In this document: positions 1,657 through 16,152 of the stretch, one piece after another
Numbering within the stretch: the first letter of the stretch is position 1
How the letters are laid out: each line of letters starts with the position of its first letter
NCBI GenBank assembly: GCA_040218735.1
Contig: JAVJQW010000052.1
Location: forward strand, 1 to 16,732
Reading direction: 5' to 3'
DNA from: Deltaproteobacteria bacterium
Lineage (GTDB): Bacteria > Myxococcota > Kuafuiibacteriia > Kuafuiibacteriales > Kuafuiibacteriaceae
Length of the DNA stretch: 16,732 nt
The notes under the pieces: generated by a model
The model's database searches: none
What the model was told of the DNA's origin: nothing
The model's input: only the letters and a program-made list of their open reading frames with translations
Position numbers and translations under genes: made by a program

Positions 1657-1686
1657 CGGGAGCGGGGACGTTCTTGTTTGTCGCCG

Positions 1687-1934
1687 CCTTTGCGGTCTTC
1701 GGCCCGCGGTTGTGCTTCGGTTTCGGGGGTGCGCCGGCGCGCCTCCTCTTCGAGGCCTCACGCCTCGAGCTGCCGCCCCTTCGGGGTCGGTGCGGCTCTG
1801 CTTTCGGTCCCCTCGCTTCACTCGGCTCGGCTTCGCCTCGCAGAAAGCGCCGCACCGCCTCGAGGAGCTCGGACGGTCGCGCCCGTTTGGCGAACCCCCG
1901 ACCCAAGCACGGCCGCGAGGCTGAGCTCGAAAGG
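1687..1934. repeat. Long hairpin element, copy 1 (conserved core 1754-1876), upstream of radC
   Basis: Core is about 92% identical to 15973-16096. Nested complementary arms: 1687-91/1930-34, 1705-17/1905-17, 1723-30/1894-1901, 1736-41/1878-83, 1788-96/1849-57. Confidence 0.9.
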
Positions 1935-1943
1935 AAGCCGACG

Positions 1944-2417
1944 ATGAACTCTTCACCCGCGCCCAGGAAGCCAACCCCCCCCAAGCGACACACGTACAGC
2001 CTGCGTACGGTTCGCTTCCACGTGGCCGAGCCCGTCACGCGCCACATCCAAACGCGCGACGATCTGCGCGCCGTCCTCGGGCCGCTCTTCGACAACCTCG
2101 ACGGCGACCGGGAACACTTCCTCGTCCTCGCCCTCAACGCGCGCGGCCGCGTTATCGGCTACCAGGCCGTTGCGACTGGAACGGCGACGGCTTGCCTGGT
2201 GCACCCGCGCGAGGTCTTCCGAGTCGCAGTCGCACTCGGGGCGGCGTCCATCATGGTCGCCCACAATCATCCGAGCGGCGAAACCGCGCCGTCTCGCGAG
2301 GATCACCTGCTCACCGAGCGTCTCGTCACGGGCGGCGCACTGTTGGGCATCCCGGTGCTCGACGCGGTGGTGTGGACGCCGGGCGGCATCGAGACGACGA
2401 TGCCGGGGTCGGAGTGA
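1944..2417 (+). CDS. radC: RadC-like JAB/MPN domain protein (short form typical of mobile elements)
   Basis: REHFLVLALN, VHPREVF, AHNHPSG..PSRED and LLGIPVLD motifs. Likely start is ATG 1944, after GAAAGG. Confidence 0.9.
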   Translation: MNSSPAPRKPTPPKRHTYSLRTVRFHVAEPVTRHIQTRDDLRAVLGPLFDNLDGDREHFLVLALNARGRVIGYQAVATGTATACLVHPREVFRVAVALGAASIMVAHNHPSGETAPSREDHLLTERLVTGGALLGIPVLDAVVWTPGGIETTMPGSE

Positions 2418-2434
2418 GCGCAAGGAGCCCCGAG

Positions 2435-2734
2435 ATGAACCGCAGCCTCAGCTTCAACCCCACCGAACGGCGGATGATCGAACTCGCCAAGACGTTCCCG
2501 ACGTTCGTGCGTCGCCCCGAGGCCGTCGAGCCCTGGCGGCCGCGCGACCTCGATTCCTGGGCCGCCGCCGCGAGTCATGGCGAAAAGCTCGCGGCGCAGT
2601 TCCTCCTCGCCGTCTGGGACCCGAGTCATGATTGGGTCTGCGGTCGGTTCGACGTGATGGAGGCGCTGTCGATCTGGGATGCGCCACACCGCGAGGCCTT
2701 CTTGGCGTGGGCGTCTACCCCGTGGTGGCCGTGA
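2435..2734 (+). CDS. Hypothetical protein, 99 aa, Trp-rich (ends AFLAWASTPWWP)
   Basis: AAGGAG SD at 2422-2427, ATG at 2435, 17 nt after the radC stop. Protein-like composition. Confidence 0.75.
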   Translation: MNRSLSFNPTERRMIELAKTFPTFVRRPEAVEPWRPRDLDSWAAAASHGEKLAAQFLLAVWDPSHDWVCGRFDVMEALSIWDAPHREAFLAWASTPWWP

Positions 2735-2824
2735 TCCCCGCGGTCACCTCGCCCCGTCGAAAGTCTCCGAGGCCTTCCTCTTCCACGCTTGACGACGGCG
2801 CGTCAGTGACGATTCCCCTCCGCC

Positions 2825-3112
2825 ATGACAAGGCTTTCTACCGCCACCGAGGCGTATCGCGACTTACACTTCGCCATGTTCTTCTGGATTCCTGTCGCCG
2901 ACGCTCGCAACTTCAAGCCGCCTTCGGGATGGGTCACAGGTTTTCGTAACCAGCTCGTCGACGGCGAAGAGGCGGTTCTCTTCAAACACCCGGGTCGCGA
3001 GCGCGCGATATGCAAGCATATAGATGACCATCCGTTGACCCGGAAGGAGCGACTCTACGTCGACTACTTCGCAGCGCATCGCGCGCGGGCCTCCCGACTC
3101 TCCACGTTCTGA
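2825..3112 (+). CDS. Hypothetical protein, 95 aa
   Basis: ORF with globular, non-Arg/Ala-biased composition, co-oriented with its neighbours. No clear SD. Confidence 0.5.
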   Translation: MTRLSTATEAYRDLHFAMFFWIPVADARNFKPPSGWVTGFRNQLVDGEEAVLFKHPGRERAICKHIDDHPLTRKERLYVDYFAAHRARASRLSTF

Positions 3113-3186
3113 ACGCGGGGCTGTTCCCCCGGGCTTCGAGCACTCCTATCTCGCCCTTCGCGCCTGTGTGCGTAAGCATCACAACG

Positions 3187-3849
3187 ATGGACACCTCCCT
3201 CGCCCTCGCCGCCGTCATCGCCGCCCGCCACCGGCAAACACTCGACGTCCTGAAGGAGATCGCGCCCGAACGCGCCGTGGCGCTCGAAGCCTCCTGGACC
3301 GAAGAGCTGCAGAAAGCGTCTGAGGCAGTTGGGCCCGCGCCTGCGTCCCACGCATCTCGTACGCTGACGACCCCGTCCGGAGATCAGGTTGATGTCGACG
3401 AAGGGATGGTTGCTTTCGTTCGGGAGCTCTGGCGACTCGGCATCCCGACGAGCTCATGCTGCCAGGGGGGGCTAGGCAGTTCCGATGATCCCTTCGATCC
3501 CGATCATCCGGCCCACGTCTCCTTCTTCCATGTCGACCACGCACTGGCCTTCCTGCAACTCGCGGACGGACCCAAACCGACGCACGTTGCTTGGAGCGGA
3601 CCGGATTCTGACGGCTTCAACGACAGCCTCCATGCCCGAATGATGGGCTCGAATTTCTTCGAGCCGGAGCGCGAGTGGGAATACTCGGCCTTTCTCGAAT
3701 GCGAGGGCGAGAACAACGCCGACGACAGCGGCATGCGTCTTGACGGCTACACTCTATCGATCCTGGTCTACCTTCCGCCCGAGGATGTGGCGCGTGTAGC
3801 GGTCAACCTTGCTGCGCAGCCGCCGTTGGCGAAGCCATTTGCGTGGTGA
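3187..3849 (+). CDS. Hypothetical protein with a TYW3-like motif
   Basis: VDVDEGMVAFVRELWRLGIPTSSCCQG...AHVSF resembles the D-x2-I-x2-LV-x2-LN-x2-G-x2-T-x2-SC-x-G pattern of TYW3-fold proteins. Likely ATG is 3187. Confidence 0.65.
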   Translation: MDTSLALAAVIAARHRQTLDVLKEIAPERAVALEASWTEELQKASEAVGPAPASHASRTLTTPSGDQVDVDEGMVAFVRELWRLGIPTSSCCQGGLGSSDDPFDPDHPAHVSFFHVDHALAFLQLADGPKPTHVAWSGPDSDGFNDSLHARMMGSNFFEPEREWEYSAFLECEGENNADDSGMRLDGYTLSILVYLPPEDVARVAVNLAAQPPLAKPFAW

Positions 3850-3980
3850 GATGGTCGCAACTTCTGCGTAGCTCGAGCCTCACGGACGTTTCTCCGCGCG
3901 CCCGTTGACGACTGCTTCACGGTATCTACGCAAGACCGCCCCGGCAATCTGCCGGGAAACATCATCAAGGAGAACAAGTC

Positions 3981-4127
3981 ATGGCGAAGAGTGGTGGAAG
4001 CAAAGGCGGAAGCGGCAGCAGTGGTGGAGGCAAGGGCGGATCCGGCAACAGCGGCGGGAACTGGCCAAGCACCACCGGGAATCCGTCTGGTGGTGGGCGA
4101 GGCAACAATCCCCCGAAGGGCAAGTAG
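3981..4127 (+). CDS. Small Gly/Ser-rich peptide, 48 aa
   Basis: Strong SD (AAGGAG) then ATG. Sequence is MAKSGGSKGGSGSSGGGKGGSGNSGGNWPSTTGNPSGGGRGNNPPKGK. It is below the ORF-track length cutoff. Confidence 0.7.
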   Translation: MAKSGGSKGGSGSSGGGKGGSGNSGGNWPSTTGNPSGGGRGNNPPKGK

Positions 4128-4329
4128 CCGCGTCGCTATGTCCGTCGACAGTGACCCTCCGCAGCCGCGAAGCTGCGGTGCGTCGGGGTGCGCCCAGAGC
4201 GGAATCGGAGCGACAACGCCAGGTGCGCGAGGAAGGAGTCAGCGACGAATCTCCGGCCGCTTCGGGTCGGCGTTCGATGTCTGAGCATCTTCCGTTGTGA
4301 TACGGTAGCGACCGACGGACTCAACGACT

Positions 4330-4740
4330 GTGAGTGACGCACGACCACCGCGCGATGCTGCGCCTGAAGACCAAAGACGATCCTTTCAGCGATGGCTAGC
4401 TTTGAGCGGACTCCCGTTCCTCGATCTGCGTGGTGCTGACCTGCGTGGTGCCAACCTCCGGTACGCCCGGCTTGCCCAAGCCAACCTCTCCGGCGCCGAC
4501 CTTCGAGGTGCTGATCTGCGTCACGCGAATCTCAACGGCGCTAACCTCTCTGGCGCCGACCTGTCCGGGGCCGACCTCGGCAGTGCGTGCCTTGAGGGCG
4601 CCAACGTAGCTGGCGCCTGCCTTGAGGGTGTCGACTTTTCTGCTGGAGCTTCGTTTCTGGGGACGACCCTTCTGAGCGCGCAGTGGAGCCACATTCGACT
4701 GGTCGCCGGGCGAATGTCTCGCGAGCGCTGGGCGGCATAG
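4330..4740 (+). CDS. Pentapeptide repeat protein
   Basis: Tandem A(D/N)L(R/S)G repeats ([51 protein letters not shown]). Possible TGA-TACGGT extended -10 at 4298-4306. Confidence 0.85.
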
Positions 4741-4804
4741 CCCTCCGCACGTCGACGCTTCCCCGTGACGACGTCGCAGAGGCCCAACACAGCCGTGCCC
4801 CGCG

Positions 4805-4815
4805 TTATGTCAACT
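4805..4815 (+). other. Isolated XerD-arm-like half site (TTATGTCAACT)
   Basis: Matches the XerD arm pattern TTATGTnAAnT. The upstream 17 nt do not resemble a XerC arm. Confidence 0.5.
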
Positions 4816-4852
4816 CGGCGCTCGAACCCCGCACCCTGACTGCGTTTTTCCA

Positions 4853-4880
4853 GCTTCCGATAAGGGTCATTATGTCCACT
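4853..4880 (+). other. dif-like XerC/XerD recombination site
   Basis: GCTTCCGATAA-GGGTCA-TTATGTCCACT has 11-6-11 architecture with the ATAA-N6-TTATGT core (E. coli dif is GGTGCGCATAA-TGTATA-TTATGTTAAAT). It is intergenic, between convergent gene blocks. Confidence 0.75.
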
Positions 4881-4958
4881 CAGTATAATACACTTGAGCG
4901 AAGCACGGTGTGTAGATCGAGTCTGCGCGACAGCGCCGCCGAACGCAAGCAGGCGGAT

Positions 4959-5150
4959 TCAAGGACCTCGAGGCGGGATGCGTGATTGCTCTTCACTAAG
5001 CCCCATCGCTTCTCCGAGCCGGTAGTGGGCATGCTCCAGCGCCTTTCTCGACACCTCACTGGGGTCGAGCACGTGCTCAATCAGAAGAAAGAGCGCCTCT
5101 GTCTGGCGCTCAACGTGGCGCAGAATCTTGGTCGTCTCATCGTCGGTCAT
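4959..5150 (-). CDS. Small hypothetical protein, 63 aa
   Basis: MTDDETTKILRHVERQTEALFLLIEHVLD..., helical-looking. AAGGTGG lies upstream of the ATG. Confidence 0.5.
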   Translation of the reverse strand: MTDDETTKILRHVERQTEALFLLIEHVLDPSEVSRKALEHAHYRLGEAMGLSEEQSRIPPRGP

Positions 5151-5202
5151 GTATGCCACCTTGCGTATCACAAAGCGTTCAGTTCGTTCGGAACGAATAA
5201 CC

Positions 5203-5734
5203 TCAGCGCCCGACTGCGGCCGCGACGGTCGCCTCAGCTTCGGTTTGCACGGTGATTTCTGCCGCCCTCATCCCGGCCTGGCGTTCCGCCTCCTGGCGCT
5301 GCATCTCGCCGCAGAACTCGAAGATGCTCGCCCGCTCTTCGGCGCCGCTCCAGGCGTCCTCAAGTTCGCCATCCGCTGTGAACTTCTCGTCCTTCGCGCC
5401 GTCGGTTCGGAAGACGAAGATCCGCAAGCGCGAACTCGATCATCGTCTTCGTGCCGCGGCTGCGGCCGTCCCAGACCGCCACGAGACCATCCGCGTTCTG
5501 TGCCATCTGGCGATTGCGGATTGGGCCGGCGCGCTTTCCGTATGTGCGCCAGTCGGCAGGAAACCGGTGCACTTCGATCTCCCGCTTCGCAGCCCAGCGC
5601 TCTCCAAACTCGTCCGCACCGCGCGCCGTGCCAGATACGATGGCGCTCGCAAACCCAATCCACGGACATCGGTCCAGCGCCTCGTTCACCTGCGCCTCCG
5701 TGGCGTTGCGGCTGCCGGCGACGATGACTCGCAT
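5203..5734 (-). pseudogene. SLOG-superfamily (YspA-like/DUF2493) protein with a C-terminal EERAxI-type helical tail, frameshifted at about 5428
   Basis: MRVIVAGSR...IVSGTARGAD...PADWRTYGKRAGPIRNRQMA..AD.LVAVWDG.SRGTKTMI is the typical pattern. The expected final strand LRIFVFRTDG continues in another frame (5427-5203). The start overlaps the PRTase stop (TAATG). Confidence 0.8.
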
Positions 5735-6234
5735 TACGGCAACAGCTTCCGAAGTACAGCCTGGGCCGTTCCGCTCGAGCTTCCATTGAATGGACGATTG
5801 GTGCCGACACTGTACGCCCCGCGAGGGACCGGCGCGAATGGATCGCTCTTGATCTGGATCTCTTGGTACAGCGTGCGCCCCCCAAACTTCCCAAGCGCAA
5901 CGCCGGCAACGAACGACGCACCCGCAGCCCTCAGTAATCCCGCCGCGACAGCGAAGGACACGCCGTACGTCGTGCAGTCGTCGATGACGACAACGCTTCG
6001 GCCGCTGCACTTGCCGCGGTAGAACGGGTTCAGGTGCAGCGTTTCGATTTGCTCCGCCGGATCCTCGCGGTCGCCGCCGCCTCCGGCCGAGCGCTTCGAG
6101 GAGGCGGCATGACGAATGAAGAGCGGTTCGTTGCGCTTCGCGTAGCGAACGGCCGACACCGTTGTCCGAAGCCGATGCGTGAAGTCGCTGAGCACTTCGG
6201 TGTCGTCGTTCGCGCTGCCCGACGAAGGATAAGA
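5734..6234 (-). pseudogene. Type I phosphoribosyltransferase (ComF/ShosT-like), apparently 5'-truncated
   Basis: PRPP-binding loop VVVIDDCTTYGVSF. The frame is open upstream through YPSSGS to a stop at 6289-6291 with no ATG. The GTG at 6195 has no SD. Confidence 0.7.
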
Positions 6235-6611
6235 CCTGTCGACGGTCTCACGCCAGGTCGGCCACGCGAACGTACAGACGACGGCACGCTACGATCGGCG
6301 CAGACCGCTTTCTCGCACAAGACGCCAGTGCATCGCCATTCGCTGCTACAGAGCACCCCTACCGTCCCGTGCGTCAGTCGACGCCGCAGCGATCCTCATT
6401 CTCTATGTACGCGGAATCGCGGTCCCCATCGCGTAGTTCTTGCGGCACGTAAGTCGGTAGGGACGTGCCCCTACGGCGCGCAGAACGGCAGACGGGCAAC
6501 CGCAACGCCAAAACCTGAGACAGATGACCGGACGCGTGAGGTAGCAGGTTCATCAACGCCGCAAGATCCAGCTCTGGTGCCCAACCGCGTGAAGCTCTAG
6601 TATGAGGAGCG

Positions 6612-6929
6612 ATGCATCTCCGCCTCGTCATCGCAGCGGCGTTCGTTGCGCTGTTCGCGGCCAGGCAATCTGGGGTCGTCGAGTTTGTGGAGCACCAGAT
6701 TGGTGGGTGCCTGGCCGCCTGCCCGGATGACACCGACGAAGGGGAGTGCCCGCCCGACTGCGAGATGTGCGTTTGTTCACCGGCGACACGAACGCTGGTG
6801 CCGGCGGCCGCCAATCTCCTGACGCCGATTGAACGGCCGACGCCGCGCCTCGAGGTCCCGGCGGAGCGTCCGCCGAGCGGTGTCGTTCACCGAGTCTTCC
6901 GTCCCCCACGCTGCGACGTGTTCGCCTAG
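6612..6929 (+). CDS. CzcI/DUF2946-like leader protein (N-terminal hydrophobic segment, Cys cluster, C-terminal RPPR)
   Basis: GAGGAG SD. Contains CLAAC...CPPDCEMCVC and ends VFRPPRCDVFA. It is the first ORF before the efflux operon. Confidence 0.75.
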   Translation: MHLRLVIAAAFVALFAARQSGVVEFVEHQIGGCLAACPDDTDEGECPPDCEMCVCSPATRTLVPAAANLLTPIERPTPRLEVPAERPPSGVVHRVFRPPRCDVFA

Positions 6930-6977
6930 ACCCCTGGGACAAACGAGCGACCTCGTCGCTCCACGGGAGACGTACGC

Positions 6978-8252
6978 ATGAAGGTCCACCTGCATCGGGT
7001 GGGTCCCGCCGTTTTGCTCGTCGTCGTCGCGCCGCGCGCGGCGAACGGGGCCGAACCGGCTCGGGATCCGATCCGTATCAACCTCGACCGCACCCGCAGC
7101 ATCGCTGCGGAGAGCGCCCCGATCATCGTCGCCGCTCGCGCACGTGCAGATATCGCCGCGAGCAACGTCGCAGGAGCCTCGGTGCTCGTGCCATTCAACC
7201 CCCAGCTCACCGGTGGAGCTGGCCCACGGGTCCGAGCGCGCGACACCTTGCTTGACGTCGACATCGCGTTGCGCCAGCGCTTTGAGATCGGAGGCCAGCG
7301 CTCAGTCCGAATCGATCGCGCTGAGGCCGACACCGAACGCTCCCGAGCGATTGCCAACGACGAGCTCAGACGCACCCTAGCCCTCGCGTCCGCGACCTTC
7401 GTCGCGGTGCTTCATGCCGAGGCGGCGTTCGACGTCCGCACCGAGAGCGCTTCCGTCGCTCGCTCGCTCCTCGCCAGTGTTCGACGCCGCCACGACGTGG
7501 GAGAGATCGGCGGTCTCGACGTCAACGTCGCGACGGTATCGCTCGCGCGGGCCAACGCCGCTCGAGAGCGCGCTGCGGCGCGACGCGCCGACGCGCTGGG
7601 ACGACTCCGCGGACTCCTCGGGTTCGATCCCTCGGCCCGCCTCGAGGTCGACGGCGCGCTGAACCGACTACCGGACTTCTCGGACGTCGCCCTCGAAGAG
7701 CACCTCGAAGCACGACCGGACTTCGAGGCGGTTCGTGCGAGCGCGCGCTCGGCCGAGGCGGAGGTGTCACTCGGTCGCGCGGAGGCCTGGCCGGACGTCG
7801 GTGTCTTCGTCCGCTACGGACGTGAAGAGAACGCCGACATCGCGACGGGGGGGCTGTCGGTGTTCGTCCCGATCTTCGACCACGGCCAAGGGCTTCGCGA
7901 ACGCGGACGGGCGCGCCTGAGCGCCGCCGAGGCGGAGCTCGACGCCAAGAAACGGATGACTCTCGCCGAGCTTGCGGGGAAGACGGAGGCCTACGCGCAC
8001 CTGCGCACCGCGGTTCGAGCCTACGAGACCGAGGCACTCCCGCACCTGTTCGAAAACCTCGAACGCGGGCGCAAAGCGTATCAGGCGGGTGCAATCCCCA
8101 TCGGCGAGTTCCTCAGCATTCAACGCGAGATGGTCGCGGCGCGTATCAGCTACGTCGACCTTCTCCTCGAGGCACGCCTCGCGGCCTTCGAGATCGAATC
8201 GATGGCAGGGCTCCTGCCGTCACGGTCACACGACCCCGGAGAACAACCATGA
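6978..8252 (+). CDS. czcC: TolC-family outer-membrane efflux protein, CzcC-like
   Basis: 424 aa with a signal-like N-terminus. Motifs PFNPQL, LRQRFEIGGQR, RPD, VPIFDHGQG and YQAGAI. Operon context fits. Confidence 0.88.
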   Translation: MKVHLHRVGPAVLLVVVAPRAANGAEPARDPIRINLDRTRSIAAESAPIIVAARARADIAASNVAGASVLVPFNPQLTGGAGPRVRARDTLLDVDIALRQRFEIGGQRSVRIDRAEADTERSRAIANDELRRTLALASATFVAVLHAEAAFDVRTESASVARSLLASVRRRHDVGEIGGLDVNVATVSLARANAARERAAARRADALGRLRGLLGFDPSARLEVDGALNRLPDFSDVALEEHLEARPDFEAVRASARSAEAEVSLGRAEAWPDVGVFVRYGREENADIATGGLSVFVPIFDHGQGLRERGRARLSAAEAELDAKKRMTLAELAGKTEAYAHLRTAVRAYETEALPHLFENLERGRKAYQAGAIPIGEFLSIQREMVAARISYVDLLLEARLAAFEIESMAGLLPSRSHDPGEQP

Positions 8253-8560
8253 AGCTCGAAACCATCACGCTCTCGATCGTCCTCGCCTTCGCTGTGGTCG
8301 GCTGCAAACAAGAGGCTGCCGCGCCGACGGCCGACTCGAACCTCCACGCGAAGAGCGACGTGACCCCCGGCTCGCACGAAGACTGGTGCGGAGAACACGC
8401 GGTGCCAGAGTCCCAGTGCACGCGGTGCAACGCGGCGCTGATCCCCGCATTCAAGGCCACCAACGACTGGTGCAAGGAACACAACCTCCCCGAGTCGCAG
8501 TGCCTTCGCTGCAACCCGGATCTGAAGATCGTCCGACCGCCCAAGGAGACATCGCGGTGA
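8249..8560 (+). CDS. Small lipoprotein with two W-C-x2-H-x2-PES-x-C-x2-C metal-binding repeats
   Basis: Lipobox VVGC. Repeats DWCGEHAVPESQCTRCN and DWCKEHNLPESQCLRCN. ATGA overlap with czcC. Confidence 0.85.
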   Translation: MKLETITLSIVLAFAVVGCKQEAAAPTADSNLHAKSDVTPGSHEDWCGEHAVPESQCTRCNAALIPAFKATNDWCKEHNLPESQCLRCNPDLKIVRPPKETSR

Positions 8561-10056
8561 TGCCGAGAGTCGAAACGTCGCTCATCGTCGTCCTGATCGC
8601 GGTCGTAGCCTGTGACGACCCCAAGGCCGCTCGGGGCTCGGAGGTCACCGCGACCGAGGAGAGCTGCGCGCACGCCTTGCCCGAAGCGGTCTGCCCGAAG
8701 TGCAACCCGGCGCTCGTCGCCGTCTACCAGGCCAAGGGTGACTGGTGCGCGAGCCACGGCTTCCCCGAGTCGTTCTGTCCGATCTGTCGCCCGGGTGCTC
8801 GACTCGAAATCGACGAAGAGCGCGGGGACTGGTGCGCCGAACACGGGCTGCCGGAGTCGAAGTGCACGCAGTGCAACGTCGACCTCATCGCCGGGTACAA
8901 GGCCGCCGGCGACTGGTGCGCAGCGCACGGCTTCCCGGAGTCGGCATGCCCGATCTGCAGTCGGCCGGCCGGCACCCCGCCACCTTCGGCGATCGAACCC
9001 GGCACGAAGATCCGCTTCAAGTCGGTCGAGATCGCCAAAGCCGCCGGCATCGCCGTCGCCAAGGCCGAAGCGTCCGCCCTCGGCGTCGGAGTCGAGTGCA
9101 CGGCGCGCCTGACGTTCGACCAGAACAAGGTCGCCGACATCCGGGCGTCGATCGCTGGGGTCGTGCAAGCCGTGCTGGTGGATCTCGGGCAGGAGGTGAA
9201 GCTCGGACAGCCGCTCTTCACGCTGGAGAGCCCCCGGGTGGGTGAGTTGCAAGGGCAGGTCCGCGCAGCACGACAACGCGTCGCGAGCGCTCGCGCCGAC
9301 TTCGGTCGCCAGGAGAAGCTCCGCGAGGACGACATCGCGTCCGCGCGACAGGTCGAGCTCGCGAGGCAAGAGCTGGAGGCCGCCGAGGCGGAGCTTCACG
9401 CGCTCAACTCGGGGCTTCGCATCGCCGGGGCCTCCAGCGACAGGAGTCGGGGGCGCTATCAACTGCGCGCGCCGAAAGCAGGCAGCGTCGTACGACGCTC
9501 CGCGACCGTCGGCACGTTCGCGACGGAGGAGACCTCTTTGGCCACCATCGCCGACACCCACGCGATCTGGGCGCTGCTCGAGGTCCGCGAGCTCGATGCG
9601 GCGGCGCTTCGCCTCGGACAGTCCGTCGTCCTGTCCGTGGACGGGCTCCCCGGTCAGACCTTCTCCGGAGCGATCACCTGGATCGCATCCGAGGTGGATC
9701 CGCGCACCCGCACCGTCGCCGCGCGCGCCGAGGTCGCCAACCCCGAAGCACGGCTCCGCGCCAACCAGTTCGCGCGAGCGACGATCGCCGTAGCCTCTCC
9801 CGAGAACGCAGTGACGGTGCCGCGTGGTTCGGTGCAGCGTGTCGGTGATGAGAACGTCGTCTTCGTACGGACCGACGAACGGACGTTCGAACCCCGGCCC
9901 GTGAAGCTCGGGCGGTCGGGCCAGGGTCGACGGCAGGTCATCGGGGACGTCGCGGCCGGTGACCTCGTCGCCACCGACGGAGCGTTCCTGCTGAAGACGG
10001 AGCTGTCCAAGGAGAGCATCGGAGCGGGGTGTTGCGAGGTCGAGGGGCCCAAGTAG
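8560..10056 (+). CDS. czcB: RND membrane-fusion protein, CzcB-like, with four N-terminal Cys/His repeats
   Basis: Start overlaps the previous stop (TGATG). Lipobox-like VVAC. MFP core motifs IRASIAGVV..V.VDLGQEVK.GQPLFTLES, LRAPKAGSVV and VDPRTRTV. C-terminal GAGCCE. Confidence 0.9.
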   Translation: MPRVETSLIVVLIAVVACDDPKAARGSEVTATEESCAHALPEAVCPKCNPALVAVYQAKGDWCASHGFPESFCPICRPGARLEIDEERGDWCAEHGLPESKCTQCNVDLIAGYKAAGDWCAAHGFPESACPICSRPAGTPPPSAIEPGTKIRFKSVEIAKAAGIAVAKAEASALGVGVECTARLTFDQNKVADIRASIAGVVQAVLVDLGQEVKLGQPLFTLESPRVGELQGQVRAARQRVASARADFGRQEKLREDDIASARQVELARQELEAAEAELHALNSGLRIAGASSDRSRGRYQLRAPKAGSVVRRSATVGTFATEETSLATIADTHAIWALLEVRELDAAALRLGQSVVLSVDGLPGQTFSGAITWIASEVDPRTRTVAARAEVANPEARLRANQFARATIAVASPENAVTVPRGSVQRVGDENVVFVRTDERTFEPRPVKLGRSGQGRRQVIGDVAAGDLVATDGAFLLKTELSKESIGAGCCEVEGPK

Positions 10057-13000
10057 ATGCTCGAGCGAATCATCGACCTCTCACTGACCCATCGCGCCGC
10101 CGTGCTCGCGGTGACGCTGATCCTCGTGATCGGCGGCGTCGCCTCGTTCGCGCGGCTGCCCTTCGACGCGTTCCCCGACACGACGCCGGTGCAGGTCCAG
10201 GTGAACACCAACGCGCCGGCGCTGGCTCCGCTCGAGGTCGAGCGGCAGATCACGTTCCCTCTCGAACAAGCCGTGAGCGGCCTGCCGGGGCTCGTCGAGG
10301 TGCGCTCCGTTTCGAAGTTCGGCTTCTCGCAGATCACCGCGATCTTCGCCGACGAGATCGACATCTATCTCGCGCGTCAGGTGCTGGCGGAGCGTCTGCA
10401 CTCGGTTGGGCTTCCGCCCGGGGTGGAGCCGCCGTCGCTCGGCCCCGTCTCGACCGGCCTCGGCGAGGTCTTTCAGTACCTCGTCGAGAGCGACGAGCTG
10501 TCCGCGATGGAGCTGAGGACACTGCACCACTGGGTGATACGCCCGCAGATGCTCCAAGTCCCGGGGCTTGCGGAGATCAACACTTGGGGCGGCTTCGAGA
10601 AGCAGTTCCACGTCATCATCGATCCCGATCGTCTCCTCAAGTACGACCTGACCCTCGACGACGTCGCCGACGCACTCCAACGCAACAACGCCAACGCAGG
10701 CGGCGGGTACGTGCAGAAAGGGGGTGAAGCGATGTTGGTGCAGGGCATCGGGCTCGCGACGAGCATCGACGAGATCGAGCAGATCATCGTCGCCGCGCAC
10801 GACGGCGTCCCCATCTTCTTGCGCGACGTGGCGGAGGTCGCGATCGGCCACGAGATCCGTCGGGGGGCCGTCACCGCCGACGGACGCGGTGAAGCGGTGC
10901 TCGGGCTCGGCTTCATGTTGATGGGTGAGAACAGCCGCGCCGTCACGAAGCGGCTCGAAGCGCGCCTCGACGAAGTTCGAGCGAGCCTCCCGGACAACGT
11001 GCGGCTCGTGCCCGTCTACTCGCGCACCGACCTGGTCGACCGGATCCTCGTCACCGTGAGGAACAACCTGCTGGAAGGGGCGCTGCTCGTCATCGCCGTC
11101 CTCTTCGTTTTCCTCGGCAACCTGCGCGCCGGCTTGATCGTCGCCGCGGCCATCCCGCTGTCGATGCTCTTTGCCTTCAGCGGCATGCTCCGGTTCGGCA
11201 TCGCGGGCAGCCTCATGAGCCTCGGCGCGATCGACTTCGGGCTGGTCGTCGACAGCTCCGTCATCATGGTGGAGAACGCCGCGCACCGCCTCGCCGAGGA
11301 CGAGACCGGGCGATCGGTTCGAGAGGTCGTCCGCGACGCGGCCGCGGAGGTGCGCAGGCCGACCCTCTTCGGAGAGCTGATCATCGCGATCGTCTACCTC
11401 CCGATCCTCGCGCTCGAAGGGATCGAGGGGAAGCTGTTCAGACCCATGGCGTTGACGGTCATCTTCGCGCTCGCCGCATCGATGGTGCTCTCCGTGACCT
11501 TGATGCCTGTGCTCGCGAGCCTCGTCCTGAAGAAGGGCCAACGGAACGAGGAGACCGCGGTCGTCACCTGGCTGAAGCGTCGCTACACACGCGCCCTCGA
11601 CGTCGTCCTTCGGAGGAAGGAAGCCGTCCTCGCGGTGGTCCTCCTGCTGCTCGGCAACGCGCTCTTCCTCGCGAGCCAGATCGGGACGGAGTTCGTCCCG
11701 CGGCTCCGCGAGATGGCGGTCGTCGTCAACACGGTCCGGCTCGCGGGGGTCTCACTCGAAGAGTCGGCTCGCTACGGTACCCAGATCGAGAGGCGGTTGC
11801 TCACAGAGTTCCCCGACGAGATTGCCCACACCTGGACTCGAACGGGCAGCGCGGAGGTGGCGACCGACCCCATGGGTCTGGAGGTCTCCGATGTCTTCAT
11901 CACGCTGACCCCTCGAGCGCGGTGGACGAAGGCCAAGACACAGGACGCGCTGGTGCTGCGGATGAACGAGGCCCTCGAAGGCCTGCCGGGGATGCGGACG
12001 ATCTTCACTCAACCGATCGAGATGCGGACGAACGAGATGATCGCCGGAATCCGTGCGGACGTCGGAATCAAGCTCTACGGCGACGACTTCGACATCCTCC
12101 GCGGGAAGGCCGCGCAGATCCGACAACGGGTGGAGGCGACCCCGGGCGCCGCTGACGTGACCGTCGAGCAACTCACGGGTCTCCCGGTCCTCCAGATCGA
12201 GGTGGATCGCCTCGCCGTCGCGCGCTACGGCGTCGCCGCTGAACACGTCTTGGAGGTCGTCGAGGCGCTCGGGACACAGAAGGTCGGAGAGGTTGTCGAC
12301 GGCCAGCGCCGCTTCGACCTCGCCGTGCGCCTCGACGACCGGTACCGGACCGACCCCGCCGCGGTCGGCCGGATCTTGGTGACGACGACGAAGGGCGAGC
12401 GGCTCCAGCTGAGCCAGCTCGCGAAGATTCGCGTCGTGGAGGGGCCGGCGACCATCAACCGCGAGTGGGCAAAGCGTCGAGTCGTCGTCCAGGCGAACGT
12501 GCGCGAGCGCGACGTCGGCTCGTTCGTGGAGGAGCTGCGCGAGACGATCCGGCGCGACGTACAGATGCCGCCCGGGTACTTCGTCCGTTACGGCGGCCAG
12601 TTCGAACACCTCGAACGCGCGCGAACGCGCCTCGTGATCGTCGTGCCGATCGCGCTCGTGTTGGTGTTTGTGTTGCTCTACTTCACCTACGGCCGGATCG
12701 GCGACACCCTCCGTGTCTTCACGGGCGTTCCGTTCGCAGCGGTGGGTGGCATCGCGGCGCTCTGGCTCCGGGACCTGCCGTTCAGCATCTCGGCTGCGGT
12801 GGGGTTCGTTGCGCTCTCGGGCGTCGCGGTCCTCGGCGACATGGTCCTCGCGGCGAGGATCCGGCAGCTCGCGGACCGAGGCATGGCACTCGGTGATGCC
12901 GTGCGCGCGGCGGCGGCTTCCCGTCTGCGGCCCGTGTTGATGACCAGCTTGGTCGCGGCGCTCGGGTTCGCACCGATGGCACTCAACACCGGCGTCGGCG

Positions 13001-13113
13001 CCGAAGTTCAGCGCCCCCTCGCAACCGTCGTCATCGGCGGCATGCTGACCGCGACGCTGGGTACGCTCTTCGTCATGCCTATTCTCTACGTGATCATCAG
13101 GCGCAGCGAATGA
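10057..13113 (+). CDS. czcA: Heavy-metal efflux RND transporter, CzcA/CusA family
   Basis: 1018 aa. Motifs DAFPDTT, GPVSTGLGEVFQY, SLGAIDFGLVVDSSVIMVEN, RLRPVLMT and GAEVQRPLATVVIGG. Confidence 0.95.
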   Translation: MLERIIDLSLTHRAAVLAVTLILVIGGVASFARLPFDAFPDTTPVQVQVNTNAPALAPLEVERQITFPLEQAVSGLPGLVEVRSVSKFGFSQITAIFADEIDIYLARQVLAERLHSVGLPPGVEPPSLGPVSTGLGEVFQYLVESDELSAMELRTLHHWVIRPQMLQVPGLAEINTWGGFEKQFHVIIDPDRLLKYDLTLDDVADALQRNNANAGGGYVQKGGEAMLVQGIGLATSIDEIEQIIVAAHDGVPIFLRDVAEVAIGHEIRRGAVTADGRGEAVLGLGFMLMGENSRAVTKRLEARLDEVRASLPDNVRLVPVYSRTDLVDRILVTVRNNLLEGALLVIAVLFVFLGNLRAGLIVAAAIPLSMLFAFSGMLRFGIAGSLMSLGAIDFGLVVDSSVIMVENAAHRLAEDETGRSVREVVRDAAAEVRRPTLFGELIIAIVYLPILALEGIEGKLFRPMALTVIFALAASMVLSVTLMPVLASLVLKKGQRNEETAVVTWLKRRYTRALDVVLRRKEAVLAVVLLLLGNALFLASQIGTEFVPRLREMAVVVNTVRLAGVSLEESARYGTQIERRLLTEFPDEIAHTWTRTGSAEVATDPMGLEVSDVFITLTPRARWTKAKTQDALVLRMNEALEGLPGMRTIFTQPIEMRTNEMIAGIRADVGIKLYGDDFDILRGKAAQIRQRVEATPGAADVTVEQLTGLPVLQIEVDRLAVARYGVAAEHVLEVVEALGTQKVGEVVDGQRRFDLAVRLDDRYRTDPAAVGRILVTTTKGERLQLSQLAKIRVVEGPATINREWAKRRVVVQANVRERDVGSFVEELRETIRRDVQMPPGYFVRYGGQFEHLERARTRLVIVVPIALVLVFVLLYFTYGRIGDTLRVFTGVPFAAVGGIAALWLRDLPFSISAAVGFVALSGVAVLGDMVLAARIRQLADRGMALGDAVRAAAASRLRPVLMTSLVAALGFAPMALNTGVGAEVQRPLATVVIGGMLTATLGTLFVMPILYVIIRRSE

Positions 13114-13622
13114 GGCGCTGGGTTCGAGTCCTGCTGGTGTTGGTGCTGGTCCAGGTGGCGCTTGTCGTCGTCTACCGACTGAAGACCTCCGACACGAACC
13201 GCCTGTCCATGACACCACTCGACGAGGCCGCGCCCGAACTCGTCTTCGAAACTTCGTCGGGGGTGCGGCACGACCTCTCCGCGGAGACCGGACCGGTCGT
13301 CGTCCACTTCTGGGCGACGTGGTGTCCGCCGTGTCTCGATGAGCTCCCGCACCTCCTCGAATTCGCTGAGCAATCGGATATTCGTGTATTGGCAGTGAGC
13401 GTCGACCCGGACTGGGAGAGCATTCGCGCGTGCCTGAACGGACAACTCCCCGCCGCCATCGTGCGGGCTCACTCACGCGATGCCGTGAGACCCTTTGGCG
13501 TTGGCACTCTGCCGGAGACGTTTGTCGTCGGGAGCGACGATACGCTACGTGCCCGCTTCGCTGGAGCGCAGGACTGGCGATCCGCCACTCTTCGGCGAAC
13601 CATTGCAAACATCGCCAAATAG
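13110..13622 (+). CDS. TlpA/ResA-like membrane-anchored thioredoxin
   Basis: N-terminal TM segment, VVVHFWATWCPPCLDELP and FGVGTLPETFVV. ATGA overlap with czcA. Confidence 0.9.
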   Translation: MRRWVRVLLVLVLVQVALVVVYRLKTSDTNRLSMTPLDEAAPELVFETSSGVRHDLSAETGPVVVHFWATWCPPCLDELPHLLEFAEQSDIRVLAVSVDPDWESIRACLNGQLPAAIVRAHSRDAVRPFGVGTLPETFVVGSDDTLRARFAGAQDWRSATLRRTIANIAK

Positions 13623-13786
13623 AGCGCGGTGAGCGACCTTTAGGTTCTTCACGGTGGTGCGAAAGGGCTGCCGGCCAGCGCTCGCACCTGAGCAGCGCGC
13701 TCACCGATCCGTCGGACGATGGGTCGTGAACGCTCGTCGCGAACGTCGGCGCGGAGCTCGTTCGCAGCTTATCGGGGCGGCCACGC

Positions 13787-13826
13787 GAACATCGCGACGG
13801 CATCGGGAACATCGAGACGGCATCGG
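13787..13826 (+). repeat. Two-copy 20-nt tandem repeat
   Basis: GAACATCGCGACGGCATCGG / GAACATCGAGACGGCATCGG, one mismatch. Confidence 0.7.
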
Positions 13827-13949
13827 ACACGTGACCAGGCTCCGCAGTTTCGTGCGTATCCCCGCGAGATCATCGTCGCCGAAGAAGACCGCAGCCAGCC
13901 GCGCAAACGCTGGTCGGGCGGGCCAACCCCGGGCCGCTCCGCGGCGCGC

Positions 13950-14491
13950 ACGCCAGATGTCGCCATCGCTGCGCTGCACGCCGAGGGATCCGCGTCGTCA
14001 TGTTGACGGGAGACAGCGCTATCACGGCGACCGCTGTCGCGAAGAAGCTCTCGATCGACAACGTCGTCGCGGACGTCCTCCCGGGACGAGAAGGGGCCGT
14101 CGTGAAGCGGCTGCAGGACGAAGGTCGCACCGGTCGCCATAGGCCGGCGAACGGCATCAACGACGCTCCGGCGTTGGCGCAGGCTCAGGTCGGCATCGCC
14201 ATGGGCACGGGTACGGACGTGGCCATGGAGAGCGCCAGCGTCACGCTCGTGAAGGGCGACCTTCGCGGCATCGTGCGCGCGCGGCGGCTGTCACGCGTGA
14301 CGATGGCGAACATCCGACAGAACCTCTTCTTCGCGTTCGTGTACAACGCGCTCGGCGTGCCCGTCGCGGCGGGCGTCCTGTATCCGTTCTTCGGCATGCT
14401 GCTCAGCCTCATGCTGGCCGCCGCGACGATGAGCTTCAGCTCGGTGTCGGTGATCGCCAACGCGCTGCGCCTCCGGCGAGCCGAGGTGTGA
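13950..14491 (+). pseudogene. copA: C-terminal remnant of a Cu(I) P1B-type ATPase (CopA-like)
   Basis: [41 protein letters not shown] and MSFSSVSV.N are present. There is no DKTGT, CPC or N-terminal part. Several indels (about 13987 and 14130-14152). Confidence 0.88.
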
Positions 14492-14565
14492 CGCGCGCGT
14501 GGCGCCGAGGGCCGCCGTGCTGCGGCACTTGCGAAACGCCGGGAGATCAGTGCGTGTGGTGAACC

Positions 14566-15300
14566 ATGAAGCGCTGGACCTTCTGCATGTTCACGGCCGC
14601 GATGGCCACGCCGACGACGGGGTGGGCACACCTCGAGGTCACTTCGCCTGCGAGCCGATACGGCGGCCGCGTCCTGAAGGAAGGCCCCTGCGGTCAGCAG
14701 AACGGAACGCGCAGCCAGAACGTCGCCACGTTCGCCGCCGGCGAGACGATCACGATCGTCTGGAACGAGTACATCGACCACCCCGGACACTATCGCATCG
14801 CGTTCGACGAGGACGGCGACGACGACTTCGTGGATCCGCCCTGTCTCTCGGGGTGCAATTCGAGGAACCCGACCGTCGAGCTGTACAGCAACGACACGGT
14901 GCTCCTCGACGGCATCGCCGACCGCAACGGAGGCAACTACGCCGTCGACGTCACGCTCCCGGACGTGGCCTGTTCGAACTGCACCCTCCAGATCATTCAG
15001 GTCATGTACGACAAGCCCCCGTACACGATCCCCGGGAACGAGATGTACTACCAGTGCATCGACCTCGTCCTGGTCCGCGCACCGACGCCGGACGGTGGAG
15101 TGGTCGATGCCGCCGTCGCGCCGGACGCCGGTGCGACGCCCGACGCGGGCGCGACGGCCGACGCCGATTCGACGCCGCCCGACGACGAGGATACGGGCTG
15201 TCGCTGCGTTCCCAGGCGCGGGGCGCGACCGGGAGTGCTCGTCGCCCTCGCGCTGGGAGGACTGTGGCTCGTTCGCCGTCGCCGTCAGGCCGGCGCCTGA
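14566..15300 (+). CDS. His-brace LPMO-like copper-binding protein (SCE4755-like) with a MYXO-CTERM-type anchor
   Basis: Signal peptide ends GWA|H, so the mature protein starts with His. Also KEGPCG, IDHPGHYRIAF, CSNCTLQIIQVM and YYQCIDL, a PDAG linker, then GCRC, a TM segment and RRRR. Confidence 0.85.
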   Translation: MKRWTFCMFTAAMATPTTGWAHLEVTSPASRYGGRVLKEGPCGQQNGTRSQNVATFAAGETITIVWNEYIDHPGHYRIAFDEDGDDDFVDPPCLSGCNSRNPTVELYSNDTVLLDGIADRNGGNYAVDVTLPDVACSNCTLQIIQVMYDKPPYTIPGNEMYYQCIDLVLVRAPTPDGGVVDAAVAPDAGATPDAGATADADSTPPDDEDTGCRCVPRRGARPGVLVALALGGLWLVRRRRQAGA

Positions 15301-15572
15301 AGCCCGAGCATCCCGAGGATCTTCATCAGGACGGCGTTGTTGCCGAGGTCCCGATTCGCGGCGAATGCGTCGTTTACTCCGTTCTGCGTCCCCGTCGGAT
15401 CCTGCTGGAGCATCCTCTTCAGCTCCCCGAGCACGTCGCGCGCCCCCGCGCGGTTCGACGGACAGCTTGGGCAGCGGCCGCACGCCTGGCAGGCACCGCT
15501 GCGGCAGCAGCCGGACGCACCGCAAGGGGACGCGGTGCTCTTGACGTTGGCAATTCGGTCGAGGTTCGGCAT
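15285..15572 (-). CDS. Small Cys-rich protein, 95 aa
   Basis: GGAGG SD (15578-15582) 5 nt before ATG 15572. CGASGCCRSGACQACGRCPSC followed by a helical tail. Confidence 0.55.
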   Translation of the reverse strand: MPNLDRIANVKSTASPCGASGCCRSGACQACGRCPSCPSNRAGARDVLGELKRMLQQDPTGTQNGVNDAFAANRDLGNNAVLMKILGMLGLQAPA

Positions 15573-15916
15573 GACGTCCTCCAAAAGCAACGTCCGTGCC
15601 CAGTCGGCGGCGCCATCCTTCTGGGCAGCGCCGCCCGGCTGAATGAGGCAGGTGCACCGGCTGCGAGGCAGAGTCGCGGCGCGGGCGTCAGGCGGACGTC
15701 GAGGTCCGGACGACGCGGGTGGGCCGATGCTCATAGCTCGGTCCGATCCCGTTGAAGCGCCTCCGGAACTGAACTGGTCATCGCCGGGCATCCTGGGCGC
15801 TGGGTCGTAGACCGCAAGTTTTCGTCACAGCCTCCATCGATGACGGGCGGTTCGCGCTTCACGCGCCAATGTTCTTGGCGGTCGTTCTCTGAAGCCGCCG
15901 TTCCTGCCTTCACTCA

Positions 15917-16144
15917 GGCCTTCATCCCAGGCGGTGCACGCCATCTTGGGATTCGTGGCTCACCTCCCTTCGGGCCTCACGCCTCGAGCTGCCGCCCCTT
16001 CGGGGTCGGCGGGGTTCTGCTTTCGGTCCCCTCGCTTCGCTCGGCTCGGCTCACACCTCGCAGAAAGCACCCCGCCGCCTCGAGGAGCTCGGACGGGTCG
16101 CCTGCTCACGAACCCAAGACGGCCCGCACCGCGGGCGAAAGGCC
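15917..16144. repeat. Long hairpin element, copy 2 (conserved core 15973-16096), upstream of the ssDNA-binding-like gene and ardC
   Basis: Nested arms 15917-22/16139-44, 15931-37/16126-32, 15944-50/16113-19, 15952-57/16107-12 and 16007-15/16069-77. The core is shared with copy 1. Confidence 0.9.
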
Positions 16145-16152
16145 AAAACGCG

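Follow-up and report, generated by a model that had tools for sequence, protein, structure and literature searches.

A covarying hairpin family upstream of anti-defence genes in Myxococcota, a candidate class of single-stranded DNA promoter

Single-stranded promoters are the means by which plasmids activate anti-defence genes while the incoming DNA is not yet double-stranded. According to the published accounts cited here, such promoters precede ssb, psiB, ardA, klcA, and M.EcoGIX, some classes are non-homologous to Frpo, those demonstrated so far are confined to enterobacterial plasmids of the IncF and IncI groups, and earlier searches were based on similarity to Frpo or on E. coli -35 and -10 boxes (PMC11541004, PMC12672017, bioRxiv 10.64898/2026.01.09.698686). 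The window analyzed here, a stretch of 16,732 nt, is an entire contig belonging to a conjugative element of a Myxococcota genome. An initial annotation reported two large hairpins in this window, in front of radC and of an 'ssb-like' gene followed by ardC, raising the question of whether they are the functional analogue of Frpo in another phylum.

Structure and distribution of the hairpin family

Copy 1 (type 1) is a complete stem-loop on the minus strand (1680..1943), which extends from the base up to the position preceding the ATG of radC in DNA and RNA folds (arm-duplex z-scores of -5.7 and -5.8). At its base, the Shine-Dalgarno (SD) region (1928-1934) is paired with positions 1687-1691. 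Copy 2 (type 2; 15896..16152, minus strand), delimited by folds and arm duplexes, ends just before the ATG at position 16153 and harbors an SD-like sequence (16135-16141) within its basal stem. As proposed, both regions folded into hairpins of about 250 nt. The SD-like motif CGAAAGG was present upstream from both ATG codons, at a spacing of 9 and 11 nt rather than the 9-10 nt first described.

The conserved core occupies positions 1750..1880 of the minus strand in copy 1, modelled on the strand antisense to the genes (covariance-model match of 153.1 bits in R1 and 135.5 bits in R2), and positions 15969..16100 of the minus strand in copy 2 (148.8 and 134.2 bits, respectively). The repeat was confirmed, since segments 1754-1876 and 15973-16096 are 92% identical, and the three compensatory pairs reported in a single stem were found exactly as claimed. 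In copy 1, the 5' half of this 8-bp helix, GGTGCGGC on the plus strand (1789..1796), pairs with the 3' half, GCCGCACC (1849..1856). The corresponding halves of copy 2 are GGCGGGGT (16008..16015) and ACCCCGCC (16069..16076). The compensatory columns are CG/UA, CG/GC, and CG/UA, and the helix contains no unpaired change. A third sequence type, present in contig C65, is intermediate in this helix (GGCGCGGC/GCCGCGCC), and variants at positions 1791, 1793, and 1796 also occur in contigs of public runs. The apical region of copy 1 (1800..1848, minus strand) comprises small helices and a loop motif, antisense GAGCCGAG-GA-AGCGAGGGGACC-GAAAG, whose sequence is conserved across copies (alignments A7 and A8).

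The genome of the window harbors six copies of the core (about 123 nt) belonging to three sequence types, which were the only ones detected by nhmmer --max within 11.6 Mb. Each copy is located inside a hairpin of about 250 nt whose end coincides with the ribosome binding site (RBS) and ATG start codon of the next gene, namely radC, a small ORF, or a 100-aa ORF preceding ardC. Searching with a covariance model built on the core revealed 10 further full-length copies, distributed over three additional genomes of Myxococcota (four in G092, one in G032, and five in G023). The element was present in 4 of 151 genomes, including that of the window, and spanned three families. Conservation is located in the center of the hairpin, the cores of the different types being 88-92% identical. 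The outer arms, initially considered as unrelated, are instead strongly diverged, with identities between types of 25-70% for the left arm and 61-76% for the right arm (40-50% for shuffled arms).

In a 17-row alignment, 94.1% of the cells were paired in comparison to 72.5% in shuffles, none of the 500 shuffles reached the observed value, and both-sided changes were present in 28 of the 39 pairs, these counts being based on alignments fitted to the structure of the model and on copies that are not mutually independent. Pairing was 36-52% in controls in which the partner was slid by 1 to 3 columns, and covariation was also assessed on an 11-row alignment. The tests on these alignments indicate that the hairpins form a structured family with significant covariation. 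A comparison with Rfam, suggested by the initial annotation, gave no match (E ≤ 1) for the whole window on both strands among 4227 families. A blastn search (word size of 11) of positions 1687-1946 against the 72,556 plasmid records of PLSDB gave no match at E ≤ 1e-3; likeness to Frpo/ssi was judged through this search, with the hairpin rather than Frpo as the query and on the assumption that PLSDB includes plasmids of the IncF and IncI groups.

Raw folding energy was unexceptional for the GC content of the genome (about 70%), the values for the six copies (-61 to -81 kcal/mol) being comparable to those of 1300 random windows of 270 nt (-65.7 ± 9.8 kcal/mol). After GC correction of 955 windows, no hairpin window ranked in the top 25. 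Relative to dinucleotide shuffles, the z-scores of the DNA folds of copies 1 and 2 were -3.4 and -3.2 for the plus strand and -1.9 and -3.5 for the minus strand. The feature that exceeds chance is the pairing of the arms, in agreement with their reported self-complementarity. The cognate arm duplexes of type 1 (-49 to -51 kcal/mol) were matched by only 1 to 3 of 3000 genomic arm pairs. For the antisense duplexes of type 2 (-42 kcal/mol) and type 3 (-38 kcal/mol), this level was reached by 20 and 97 of the 3000 pairs, respectively. Cognate duplexes were also stronger than most cross-type pairings.

Downstream genes, folding strand, and location on the conjugative element

All 16 full-length copies are located directly 5' of an ORF in the same orientation, and in the copies examined (types 1-3 and G092:C390) the basal stem extends to the SD or the ATG. 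The genes located 3' of the element encode RadC (two copies), the 100-aa ORF plus ArdC (three copies), ArdA (three copies, one of them truncated), a DUF932 protein (one copy), and unknown small ORFs (seven copies), which are kinds typical of establishment or anti-defence regions. In the window, copy 1 leads a radC-like gene encoding 157 residues (1944..2417, plus strand; PF04002, 4e-32, with additional NCBIfam and PHROG matches). Copy 2 leads the 100-aa ORF (16153..16455, plus strand), which is followed by the beginning of ardC (16532..16732, plus strand; phrog_7245, 3.8e-11). The latter gene extends past the end of the window into contig C44, which overlaps the window contig by 141 nt and encodes the ArdcN and MPTase-PolyVal portions. 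The identities of radC and ardC were therefore confirmed by family matches. The 'ssb-like' label of the 100-aa ORF was not supported, since family searches with this ORF (16153-16455) gave no match; it is rare, with four relatives in a word-indexed search.

Scans for promoter motifs upheld the reported lack of canonical -35 and -10 boxes. No sigma-70-like site was detected in 1600-2000 and 15750-16200, and no TTGACA-like, TAnnnT, sigma-54, or ECF pattern was common to the copies on either strand.

The strand on which the element folds was deduced from wobble pairs. On the antisense strand, the modelled stems contain 28 G.T cells versus 2 A.C cells, which correspond to G.T on the sense strand, and the outer arms display a wobble ratio of 24 antisense to 7 sense. 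This bias points to the DNA strand templating the led genes, as a single-stranded promoter needs. The antisense DNA fold was also the more stable one in 15 of the 16 full-length copies, by 2.6-15 kcal/mol, an asymmetry that for single copies lies within 0.5-2.5 standard deviations of the background (standard deviation of 5.8). The exception is the type 1 copy of the window, which favors the sense strand.

The initial annotation was right in placing the hairpins on a conjugative element, which is about 60 kb in size and encodes a TrwC-type (MOBF) relaxase, a T4CP, VirB2/B4/B10-like proteins, and SSB. The genes behind the hairpins have the same orientation as the T4CP-MTase-relaxase (TrwC) operon, and oriT is probably located upstream from the T4CP-relaxase operon. 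MOBF systems have a usual polarity of transfer, which has been established for F and R388. Based on this polarity and on the co-orientation with the relaxase operon, the transferred strand would be the template of the hairpin-led genes and hence the strand that folds. A location in the classical leading region, as for Frpo, does not agree with this oriT: the two copies of the window would be at distances of about 30 and 45 kb from it, and the T4SS genes, rather than the hairpin-led genes, would enter first under that polarity. Variants of the element differ in the presence of hairpin-plus-ORF modules (positions 1419-2367 of C65 are replaced in C47), and an insertion adjoins a hairpin copy in C22.

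Possible functions of the hairpin

The best explanation for these observations is a cis-acting element whose active form would be the folded single DNA strand that templates the downstream genes. By analogy with Frpo and the ssp elements of IncF and IncI plasmids, we consider it an even chance that the family is a new sequence class of single-stranded promoter or priming hairpin acting on the template strand. The hairpin of about 250 nt would form once the conjugative element enters the recipient in single-stranded form, and would be recognized by the polymerase machinery (presumably RNA polymerase or primase), probably via the conserved apical loops and the junction and not via a -35/-10 mimic. 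Transcription would start inside the hairpin, where synthesis of the complementary strand may also be primed, and the transcript would exit through the RBS-bearing arm into ardA, ardC, radC, the DUF932 gene, and the small ORFs. Since the hairpin would disappear in double-stranded DNA, the activity would be specific for single-stranded DNA and expression would be transient. The existence of a family, its covariation, the template-strand bias, and the uniform position 5' of ORFs, including anti-defence genes, preserve this part of the initial proposal. The lack of a sigma motif, the distance of 30-45 kb to the inferred oriT, the ordinary folding energy, and the sense-favoring copy count against it. 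We put forward more tentatively a version in which the promoter, or combined promoter and primer site, would lack a sigma-70 duplex mimic. An alternative sigma factor, the host primase, or an element-encoded protein would then recognize conserved apical loops left single-stranded on a hairpin with a three-way junction, and the hairpin would have been recruited repeatedly before ArdA, ArdC, RadC, DUF932, and unknown small proteins on Myxococcota mobile elements.

The hairpin could alternatively be a regulator of establishment genes comparable to EGeRS1, acting as double-stranded DNA or RNA rather than as transferred single-stranded DNA. The structure would be an insulator blocking upstream read-through, leaving the genes silent in the established element until a factor from the host or from the element itself activates them. 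The anatomy is the same as that described for EGeRS1 (PMC8708921), and the lack of a promoter motif, the inclusion of the SD and ATG in the basal stem, and the distance to the inferred oriT all agree with this mode of action. We regard it as rather unlikely, since a 28:2 antisense wobble bias is not expected for an element acting as sense RNA or double-stranded DNA; PLSDB also provided no sequence match.

Priming or replication could be the only function of the element. It would then serve as an initiation site on the single strand, where a primosome or primase enters, or, like ssp2 of F, as a programmed roadblock to synthesis of the complementary strand, and its location in front of genes would be secondary. 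Frpo also primes and ssp2 stalls conversion, according to the ssDNA promoter reports (PMC11541004, PMC12672017, bioRxiv 10.64898/2026.01.09.698686). The bias of the structure to one DNA strand, the conservation of the apical loops, as for a protein recognition site, and the absence of a promoter motif are in line with this function. Priming would not demand that 16 of 16 full-length copies abut an ORF in one orientation or that the SD or ATG be included in the basal stem where examined, making this explanation distinctly unlikely.

Folding of the sense RNA as an mRNA leader would hide the SD and AUG until a protein, processing (e.g. by RNase III), or a transcript starting within the structure opens it. 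This is what the SD-containing basal stem reaching the start codon (types 1-3 and G092:C390) and the sense preference of the type 1 copy of the window would suggest. We find this very doubtful, as the sense fold is weaker in 15 of 16 copies and mismatches spoil sense pairing yet keep antisense pairing both in the core (28 versus 2) and in the arms (24 versus 7); no Rfam family was matched either. The better folding of the antisense strand and its wobble pairs would instead suit a cis-encoded antisense RNA pairing with the leader of the gene, for which FinP provides a comparison. The promoter of such an RNA would need to be inside the element, because the downstream genes differ, and the common part contains no antisense promoter-like motif; with an unusual length of about 250 nt in addition, this function is very improbable. 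A selfish palindromic repeat (MITE or REP-like) or a recombination site at gene-cassette borders, as might be proposed for a multi-copy element whose hairpin-plus-ORF modules vary between element variants, is hardly credible for 1-6 copies per genome that are all before ORFs in one orientation with none elsewhere in 11.6 Mb, are conserved in their center rather than at their ends, and have no integrase or transposase beside the copies examined.

Comparison with known systems

The Myxococcota element is a covariation-supported family in another phylum and lacks E. coli-type -35 and -10 boxes, offering a test case for the recognition of single-stranded DNA where the sigma-70 mimic is missing. 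Its covariance model is directly usable for searches, and the uncharacterized small ORFs behind the element are flagged as candidate anti-defence genes.

The element shares with Frpo/ssi (ssp1), ssp2, and ssp3 of IncF and IncI1 plasmids, as portrayed in the reports, a large intergenic stem-loop directly upstream from anti-restriction, SSB, or SOS-inhibition operons, the presence of several copies per element, classes devoid of mutual sequence similarity, and a structure on the gene-templating strand, where it is required in ssp1-3 (PMC11541004, PMC12672017, bioRxiv 10.64898/2026.01.09.698686). Unlike ssp1-3, it has no reconstituted -35/-10, contains a conserved apical loop motif, is located far from the inferred oriT, is hosted by Myxococcota with no match in PLSDB, and is known from sequence alone.

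Apart from Frpo, the nearest counterpart described is EGeRS1 of pLS20. In the pLS20 family of Bacillus, EGeRS1 is repeated, GC-rich, and composed of multiple inverted repeats immediately upstream from the RBS of establishment operons such as that of ardC, and is described as devoid of a sigma-A promoter, just as no promoter motif was found in the Myxococcota element (PMC8708921). The likeness is one of anatomy only, namely a repeated structured sequence directly upstream from the RBS of establishment-type genes without a constitutive promoter motif, and the PLSDB blastn search revealed no sequence relation. EGeRS1 differs by its size (420-750 bp versus about 250 nt) and its branched structure. 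Its transferred strand is the non-template strand and a single-stranded promoter was judged unlikely, in contrast to the template-strand bias of the Myxococcota element; a repeated structured sequence before ardC therefore need not be a single-stranded promoter (PMC8708921). If the Myxococcota element acted like EGeRS1, this would add an independent second case of the mechanism.

The CUP repeats of IncN plasmids (pKM101/R46) are also conserved repeats preceding several leading-region genes, including anti-restriction genes, and carry an ordinary double-stranded DNA promoter with repressor sites. Motif scans of the Myxococcota element revealed no such arrangement.

Finally, hairpins non-homologous to the element were found upstream from related genes in other bacteria. 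The Paludisphaera plasmid PALBO2 encodes a 41%-identical homologue of the 100-aa ORF preceded by a long hairpin, which is more stable on the template strand (-91.0 versus -74.7 kcal/mol), as is the hairpin preceding an ArdC-like gene of the same plasmid (-95.5 versus -78.7 kcal/mol). These two hairpins were the most stable among the 20 intergenic stretches tested on PALBO2. The genes that they lead are antiparallel to mobF, implying that, in this plasmid, either oriT has a different polarity or the strand that folds stays in the donor. A hairpin upstream from ardC in a Burkholderia plasmid displayed the same preference (-87.9 versus -75.9 kcal/mol). These Planctomycetota and Burkholderia cases suggest that template-strand hairpins before ardC may be widespread outside enterobacteria.

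Hairpin copies in the window

The window spans the entire 16.7 kb of one contig (C31), from a genome of 11.6 Mb in 70 contigs. Hairpin copy 1 (1680–1943) is followed on the plus strand by radC (1944–2417), a run of small ORFs extending to ~6900 and including one for a pentapeptide-repeat protein (4330–4740), a czcCBA-like efflux cargo (6978–13113), a thioredoxin-like gene (13110–13622), a C-terminal fragment of a copper ATPase gene (14000–14491), and a gene of the SCE4755 family (14566–15300). Hairpin copy 2 (15896–16152) precedes a 100-aa ORF (16153–16455) and the start of ardC (from 16532), also on the plus strand. The ORF at 14000–14491, whose similarity to copper P-type ATPases is confined to their C-terminal ~160 residues, is a gene remnant adjoining the czcCBA-like cargo situated between both hairpins. 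The minus strand carries two genes without family (1–510 and 780–1637), which look like paralogues diverging from hairpin 1. A module of ~140 nt is present twice (557–699 and 1538–1679, 78% identical), at the 5' ends and in the upstream regions of these genes.

The initial annotation proposed that a hairpin is repeated at these two positions with compensatory changes in one stem, and this was borne out. The cores of the two copies (~1754–1876 and ~15973–16096) are 92% identical, and an 8-bp helix differs between them at three pairs, with both sides changed in each. Each region forms a single long imperfect hairpin on either strand (z –1.9 to –3.5 relative to dinucleotide shuffles). The SD-like sequence, whose association with the stem had also been pointed out, lies inside the basal stem, which extends to the start codon. 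The outer arms had been described as unrelated; they are in fact diverged homologues.

The genome harbors six copies of three sequence types, copies 1 and 2 of the window being of types 1 and 2, respectively, and a sensitive profile search of the genome detected no others. Folding energy was rejected as a detector and, taken alone, as evidence since it does not discriminate at the GC content of this genome: the six copies range from –61 to –81 kcal/mol, versus –65.7 ± 9.8 kcal/mol for random 270-nt windows, and none of the hairpin windows was among the best 25 of 955 in a GC-corrected ranking. A score counting coaxial pairs was rejected as noisy, five of the six top background windows listed being loose, bulge-rich folds and the remaining one a real long inverted repeat. 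A long, near-perfect chromosomal inverted repeat of CAAGTTCAAG/GGGCAAGGG-type units (contig C41, ~288870–289060) is unrelated to the hairpin family. The signal that rises above chance is the pairing of the arms of each type with one another. Own-arm pairing amounts to –49 to –51, –42, and –38 kcal/mol for the three types, values matched by 1–3, 20, and 97, respectively, of 3000 genomic arm pairs of equal geometry, and cross-type combinations of arms are mostly weaker. A short stretch containing CGAAC, located in the right arms ~25–35 nt 3' of the core (~1893–1899 and 16109–16115 in the window), is common to the local types and to the copies found in three other Myxococcota genomes (G023, G032, and G092), despite divergence of the arms elsewhere.

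Covariation, strand asymmetry, and downstream genes

A covariance model of the core was built on the strand antisense to the genes. Among 151 Myxococcota genomes, it retrieved four full-length copies from G092 and one from G032. A second model including these copies added five copies in G023, together with a partial, doubtful match in another genome (G006). With the stricter filters of Infernal and in this sample of genomes, carriers thus number 4 of 151, the genome of the window included, and belong to three families. In an alignment of 17 rows, which was fitted to the model and hence favors the structure, and in which copies from the same genome are related, 94.1% of the cells formed pairs versus 72.5% in shuffles, none of 500 shuffles reaching the observed value. 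Both sides were changed in 28 of the 39 pairs, and control structures in which the partner was slid by 1–3 columns were only 36–52% paired. Helices have been wholly swapped for other complementary sequences, and the apical stretch is nearly constant in sequence. These results indicate that the element is a real structured family supported by covariation. Rfam contained no match to it.

The 72,556 plasmid records of PLSDB contained no sequence match to the element, an exact two-block pattern of the core had no match in genome_contigs, and two matches to this pattern in metagenome_contigs were rejected, being coding sequences with no likeness beyond the pattern. DNA searches with the core returned short marginal matches only, both in 20 genomes of the family and order and in 401 genomes of the phylum, the latter search scoring just two candidates per genome. 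Contigs from DNA runs of three studies contained the core with arms of types 2 and 3 attached, indicating that the family is present in other samples.

Wobble pairs in the family are biased to one strand. The modelled stems contain 28 G·T cells on the antisense strand versus two A·C cells, which correspond to G·T on the sense strand. Across the outer arms of all six copies of this genome, the wobble ratio is 24 to 7 toward the antisense strand, type 1 of the window being the exception. With DNA folding parameters, the antisense strand was the more stable in five of the six local copies, and by 2.6–15 kcal/mol in all five copies of G092 and G032 and all five copies of G023. Relative to the background asymmetry (sd 5.8), differences for single copies are within 0.5–2.5 sd, and what counts is the consistent sign rather than any single value. 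Together, the biases in wobble pairing and stability favor a structure formed by the DNA strand from which the genes are transcribed. A structure of this polarity acting on an antisense RNA rather than on the template DNA strand is less likely, and the same biases argue against a leader in the sense RNA. In a metatranscriptome (X18), contigs covered the core with a summed depth consistent with copy number; since DNA may be present in the library and such contigs are incapable of showing transcript starts, this coverage was given no weight. Searches for promoter motifs in the hairpin copies, including the sigma-54 motif, found none.

Every copy has an ORF directly 3', in a single orientation. 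In the genome of the window, two copies precede radC, three the 100-aa ORF and ardC, and one, on contig C65, an 85-aa ORF followed by another ORF. The copy of G032 precedes ardA. In G023, two copies precede ardA, one of which is truncated, one precedes a DUF932 gene, and two precede paralogous ORFs without family; the four copies of G092 precede ORFs without assigned function. The neighborhood of one G023 copy encodes ParB, a replication-relaxation protein, ArdA, RadC, and an SNF2 helicase with DUF1156. Behind the copy on contig C154 of G023 (locus L077, 1633–1872), the ORF stops after ~30 residues of ArdA-like sequence and is probably interrupted. The 100-aa ORF had just four relatives in a word-indexed search and none in genome_contigs. 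For RadC, besides the copies of the same genome, only homologues with 39–62% identity were found (68 of 401 phylum genomes, counting the unpublished G195), and the plasmid records gave a single, unrelated match.

The conjugative element and its inferred oriT

The window is linked to contigs C44, C51, and C30 by 141-nt overlaps between contig ends. After ardC, the opposite strand encodes SprT-like, DUF6161, and SSB proteins, large surface-type proteins, and a kinase. The chain continues with a sigma-54 activator gene and virB10-, virB4-, and virB2-like genes, followed, again on the radC strand, by a small ORF and genes for a T4CP, a D12 methyltransferase, a TrwC relaxase, and an RCC1-repeat protein. 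On C51 (4017–7180, locus L051), a Ser/Thr kinase gene of the conjugative element lies beside that of a sigma-54-dependent activator. The relaxase end of the chain returns to hairpin 1 in the variant contigs C22, C65, and C47. Relative to the window, C22 (438–1417, locus L015) has an insertion of ~1 kb with a Schlafen/AlbA_2-domain gene directly upstream of the hairpin, whose arms pair more weakly and whose outermost left arm has been exchanged. The type-3 hairpin of C65 (1419–2367) makes up a module together with its two small ORFs. The sister element C47 (8530–12704) has 4.2 kb of other genes in place of this module, with no comparable hairpin at the start of the segment (z –1.65).

Upstream from the small ORF, T4CP, methyltransferase, and TrwC genes, a 57-nt unit occurs three times in tandem on C30 (~1400–1770, locus L052), next to a stretch that is richer in AT and carries inverted repeats. 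This region, also one of the most structured windows once GC content is corrected for (z –3.8), is likely to be the oriT; inspection by eye for known nic motifs revealed no clear match. The small ORF may encode a ribbon-helix-helix accessory protein. The polarity of transfer of F and R388 was taken as a guide. With this polarity and the inferred oriT, the strand passed to the recipient would serve as template for radC and ardC as well as for the relaxase operon, in agreement with the strand bias of the hairpins. The same reasoning would place the two copies of the window ~30 and ~45 kb from the candidate oriT on an element of ~60 kb, and so outside the leading region in the usual sense. Neither G023 nor G032 encodes a close relative of the relaxase, and its relatives in G092 are on contigs other than those of the hairpins.

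Analogous hairpins and known systems

Hairpins non-homologous to the family occupy similar positions elsewhere. In the Paludisphaera plasmid PALBO2 (NZ_CP019084.1), long hairpins (2631–3008 and 40464–40854) precede an ORF homologous to the 100-aa ORF, with 41% identity, and an ardC-like gene. The hairpin base covers the SD, the template strand is favored by 16–17 kcal/mol in both, and both surpass in stability all others of the 20 intergenic stretches tested for this plasmid, for which z-scores are rough (12 approximate context-preserving shuffles). A ParB-family gene follows the homologue of the 100-aa ORF, and a third structured stretch (5057–5396) precedes a plus-strand operon. PALBO2 is non-mobilizable according to MOB-suite, yet has an annotated MobF relaxase and T4CP. 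The hairpin-led genes are antiparallel to mobF and so do not fit a transferred template strand, unless the oriT is elsewhere. A Burkholderia plasmid ardC is associated with a hairpin having a template-strand bias of 12 kcal/mol. In another genome (G046, contig C17, ~44320–44610; locus L057, 1120–1410), two strong hairpins (z about –6) directly precede ardC, with neither strand bias nor sequence likeness to the family; a gapless inverted-repeat finder failed to detect them. The latter ardC element also carries genes for TraM, topoisomerase III, and AbiEii.

The element most likely acts as folded template-strand DNA. The folded strand would drive early expression of anti-restriction and establishment genes, and would perhaps also prime. 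Our literature search found no report of a single-stranded DNA promoter for Myxococcota, and titles and abstracts on ardC, stem-loop promoters, and the leading region included none on these phyla. Frpo/ssi and the recently described classes ssp2 and ssp3 are large stem-loops before leading-region operons, active on single-stranded DNA only, with –35 and –10 boxes rebuilt in the stem (PMC11541004; PMC12672017; bioRxiv 10.64898/2026.01.09.698686). The myxobacterial family is like these classes in anatomy, gene company, and strand logic, but lacks the –35/–10 boxes. The other close analogue is EGeRS1 of pLS20, which is repeated, structured, and located just before the ribosome binding site of ardC and other establishment operons; it is devoid of a promoter and blocks read-through, and differs in that its transferred strand is the non-template strand (PMC8708921). 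The kind of element is already known, and what is proposed to be new here is its sequence and its recognition.
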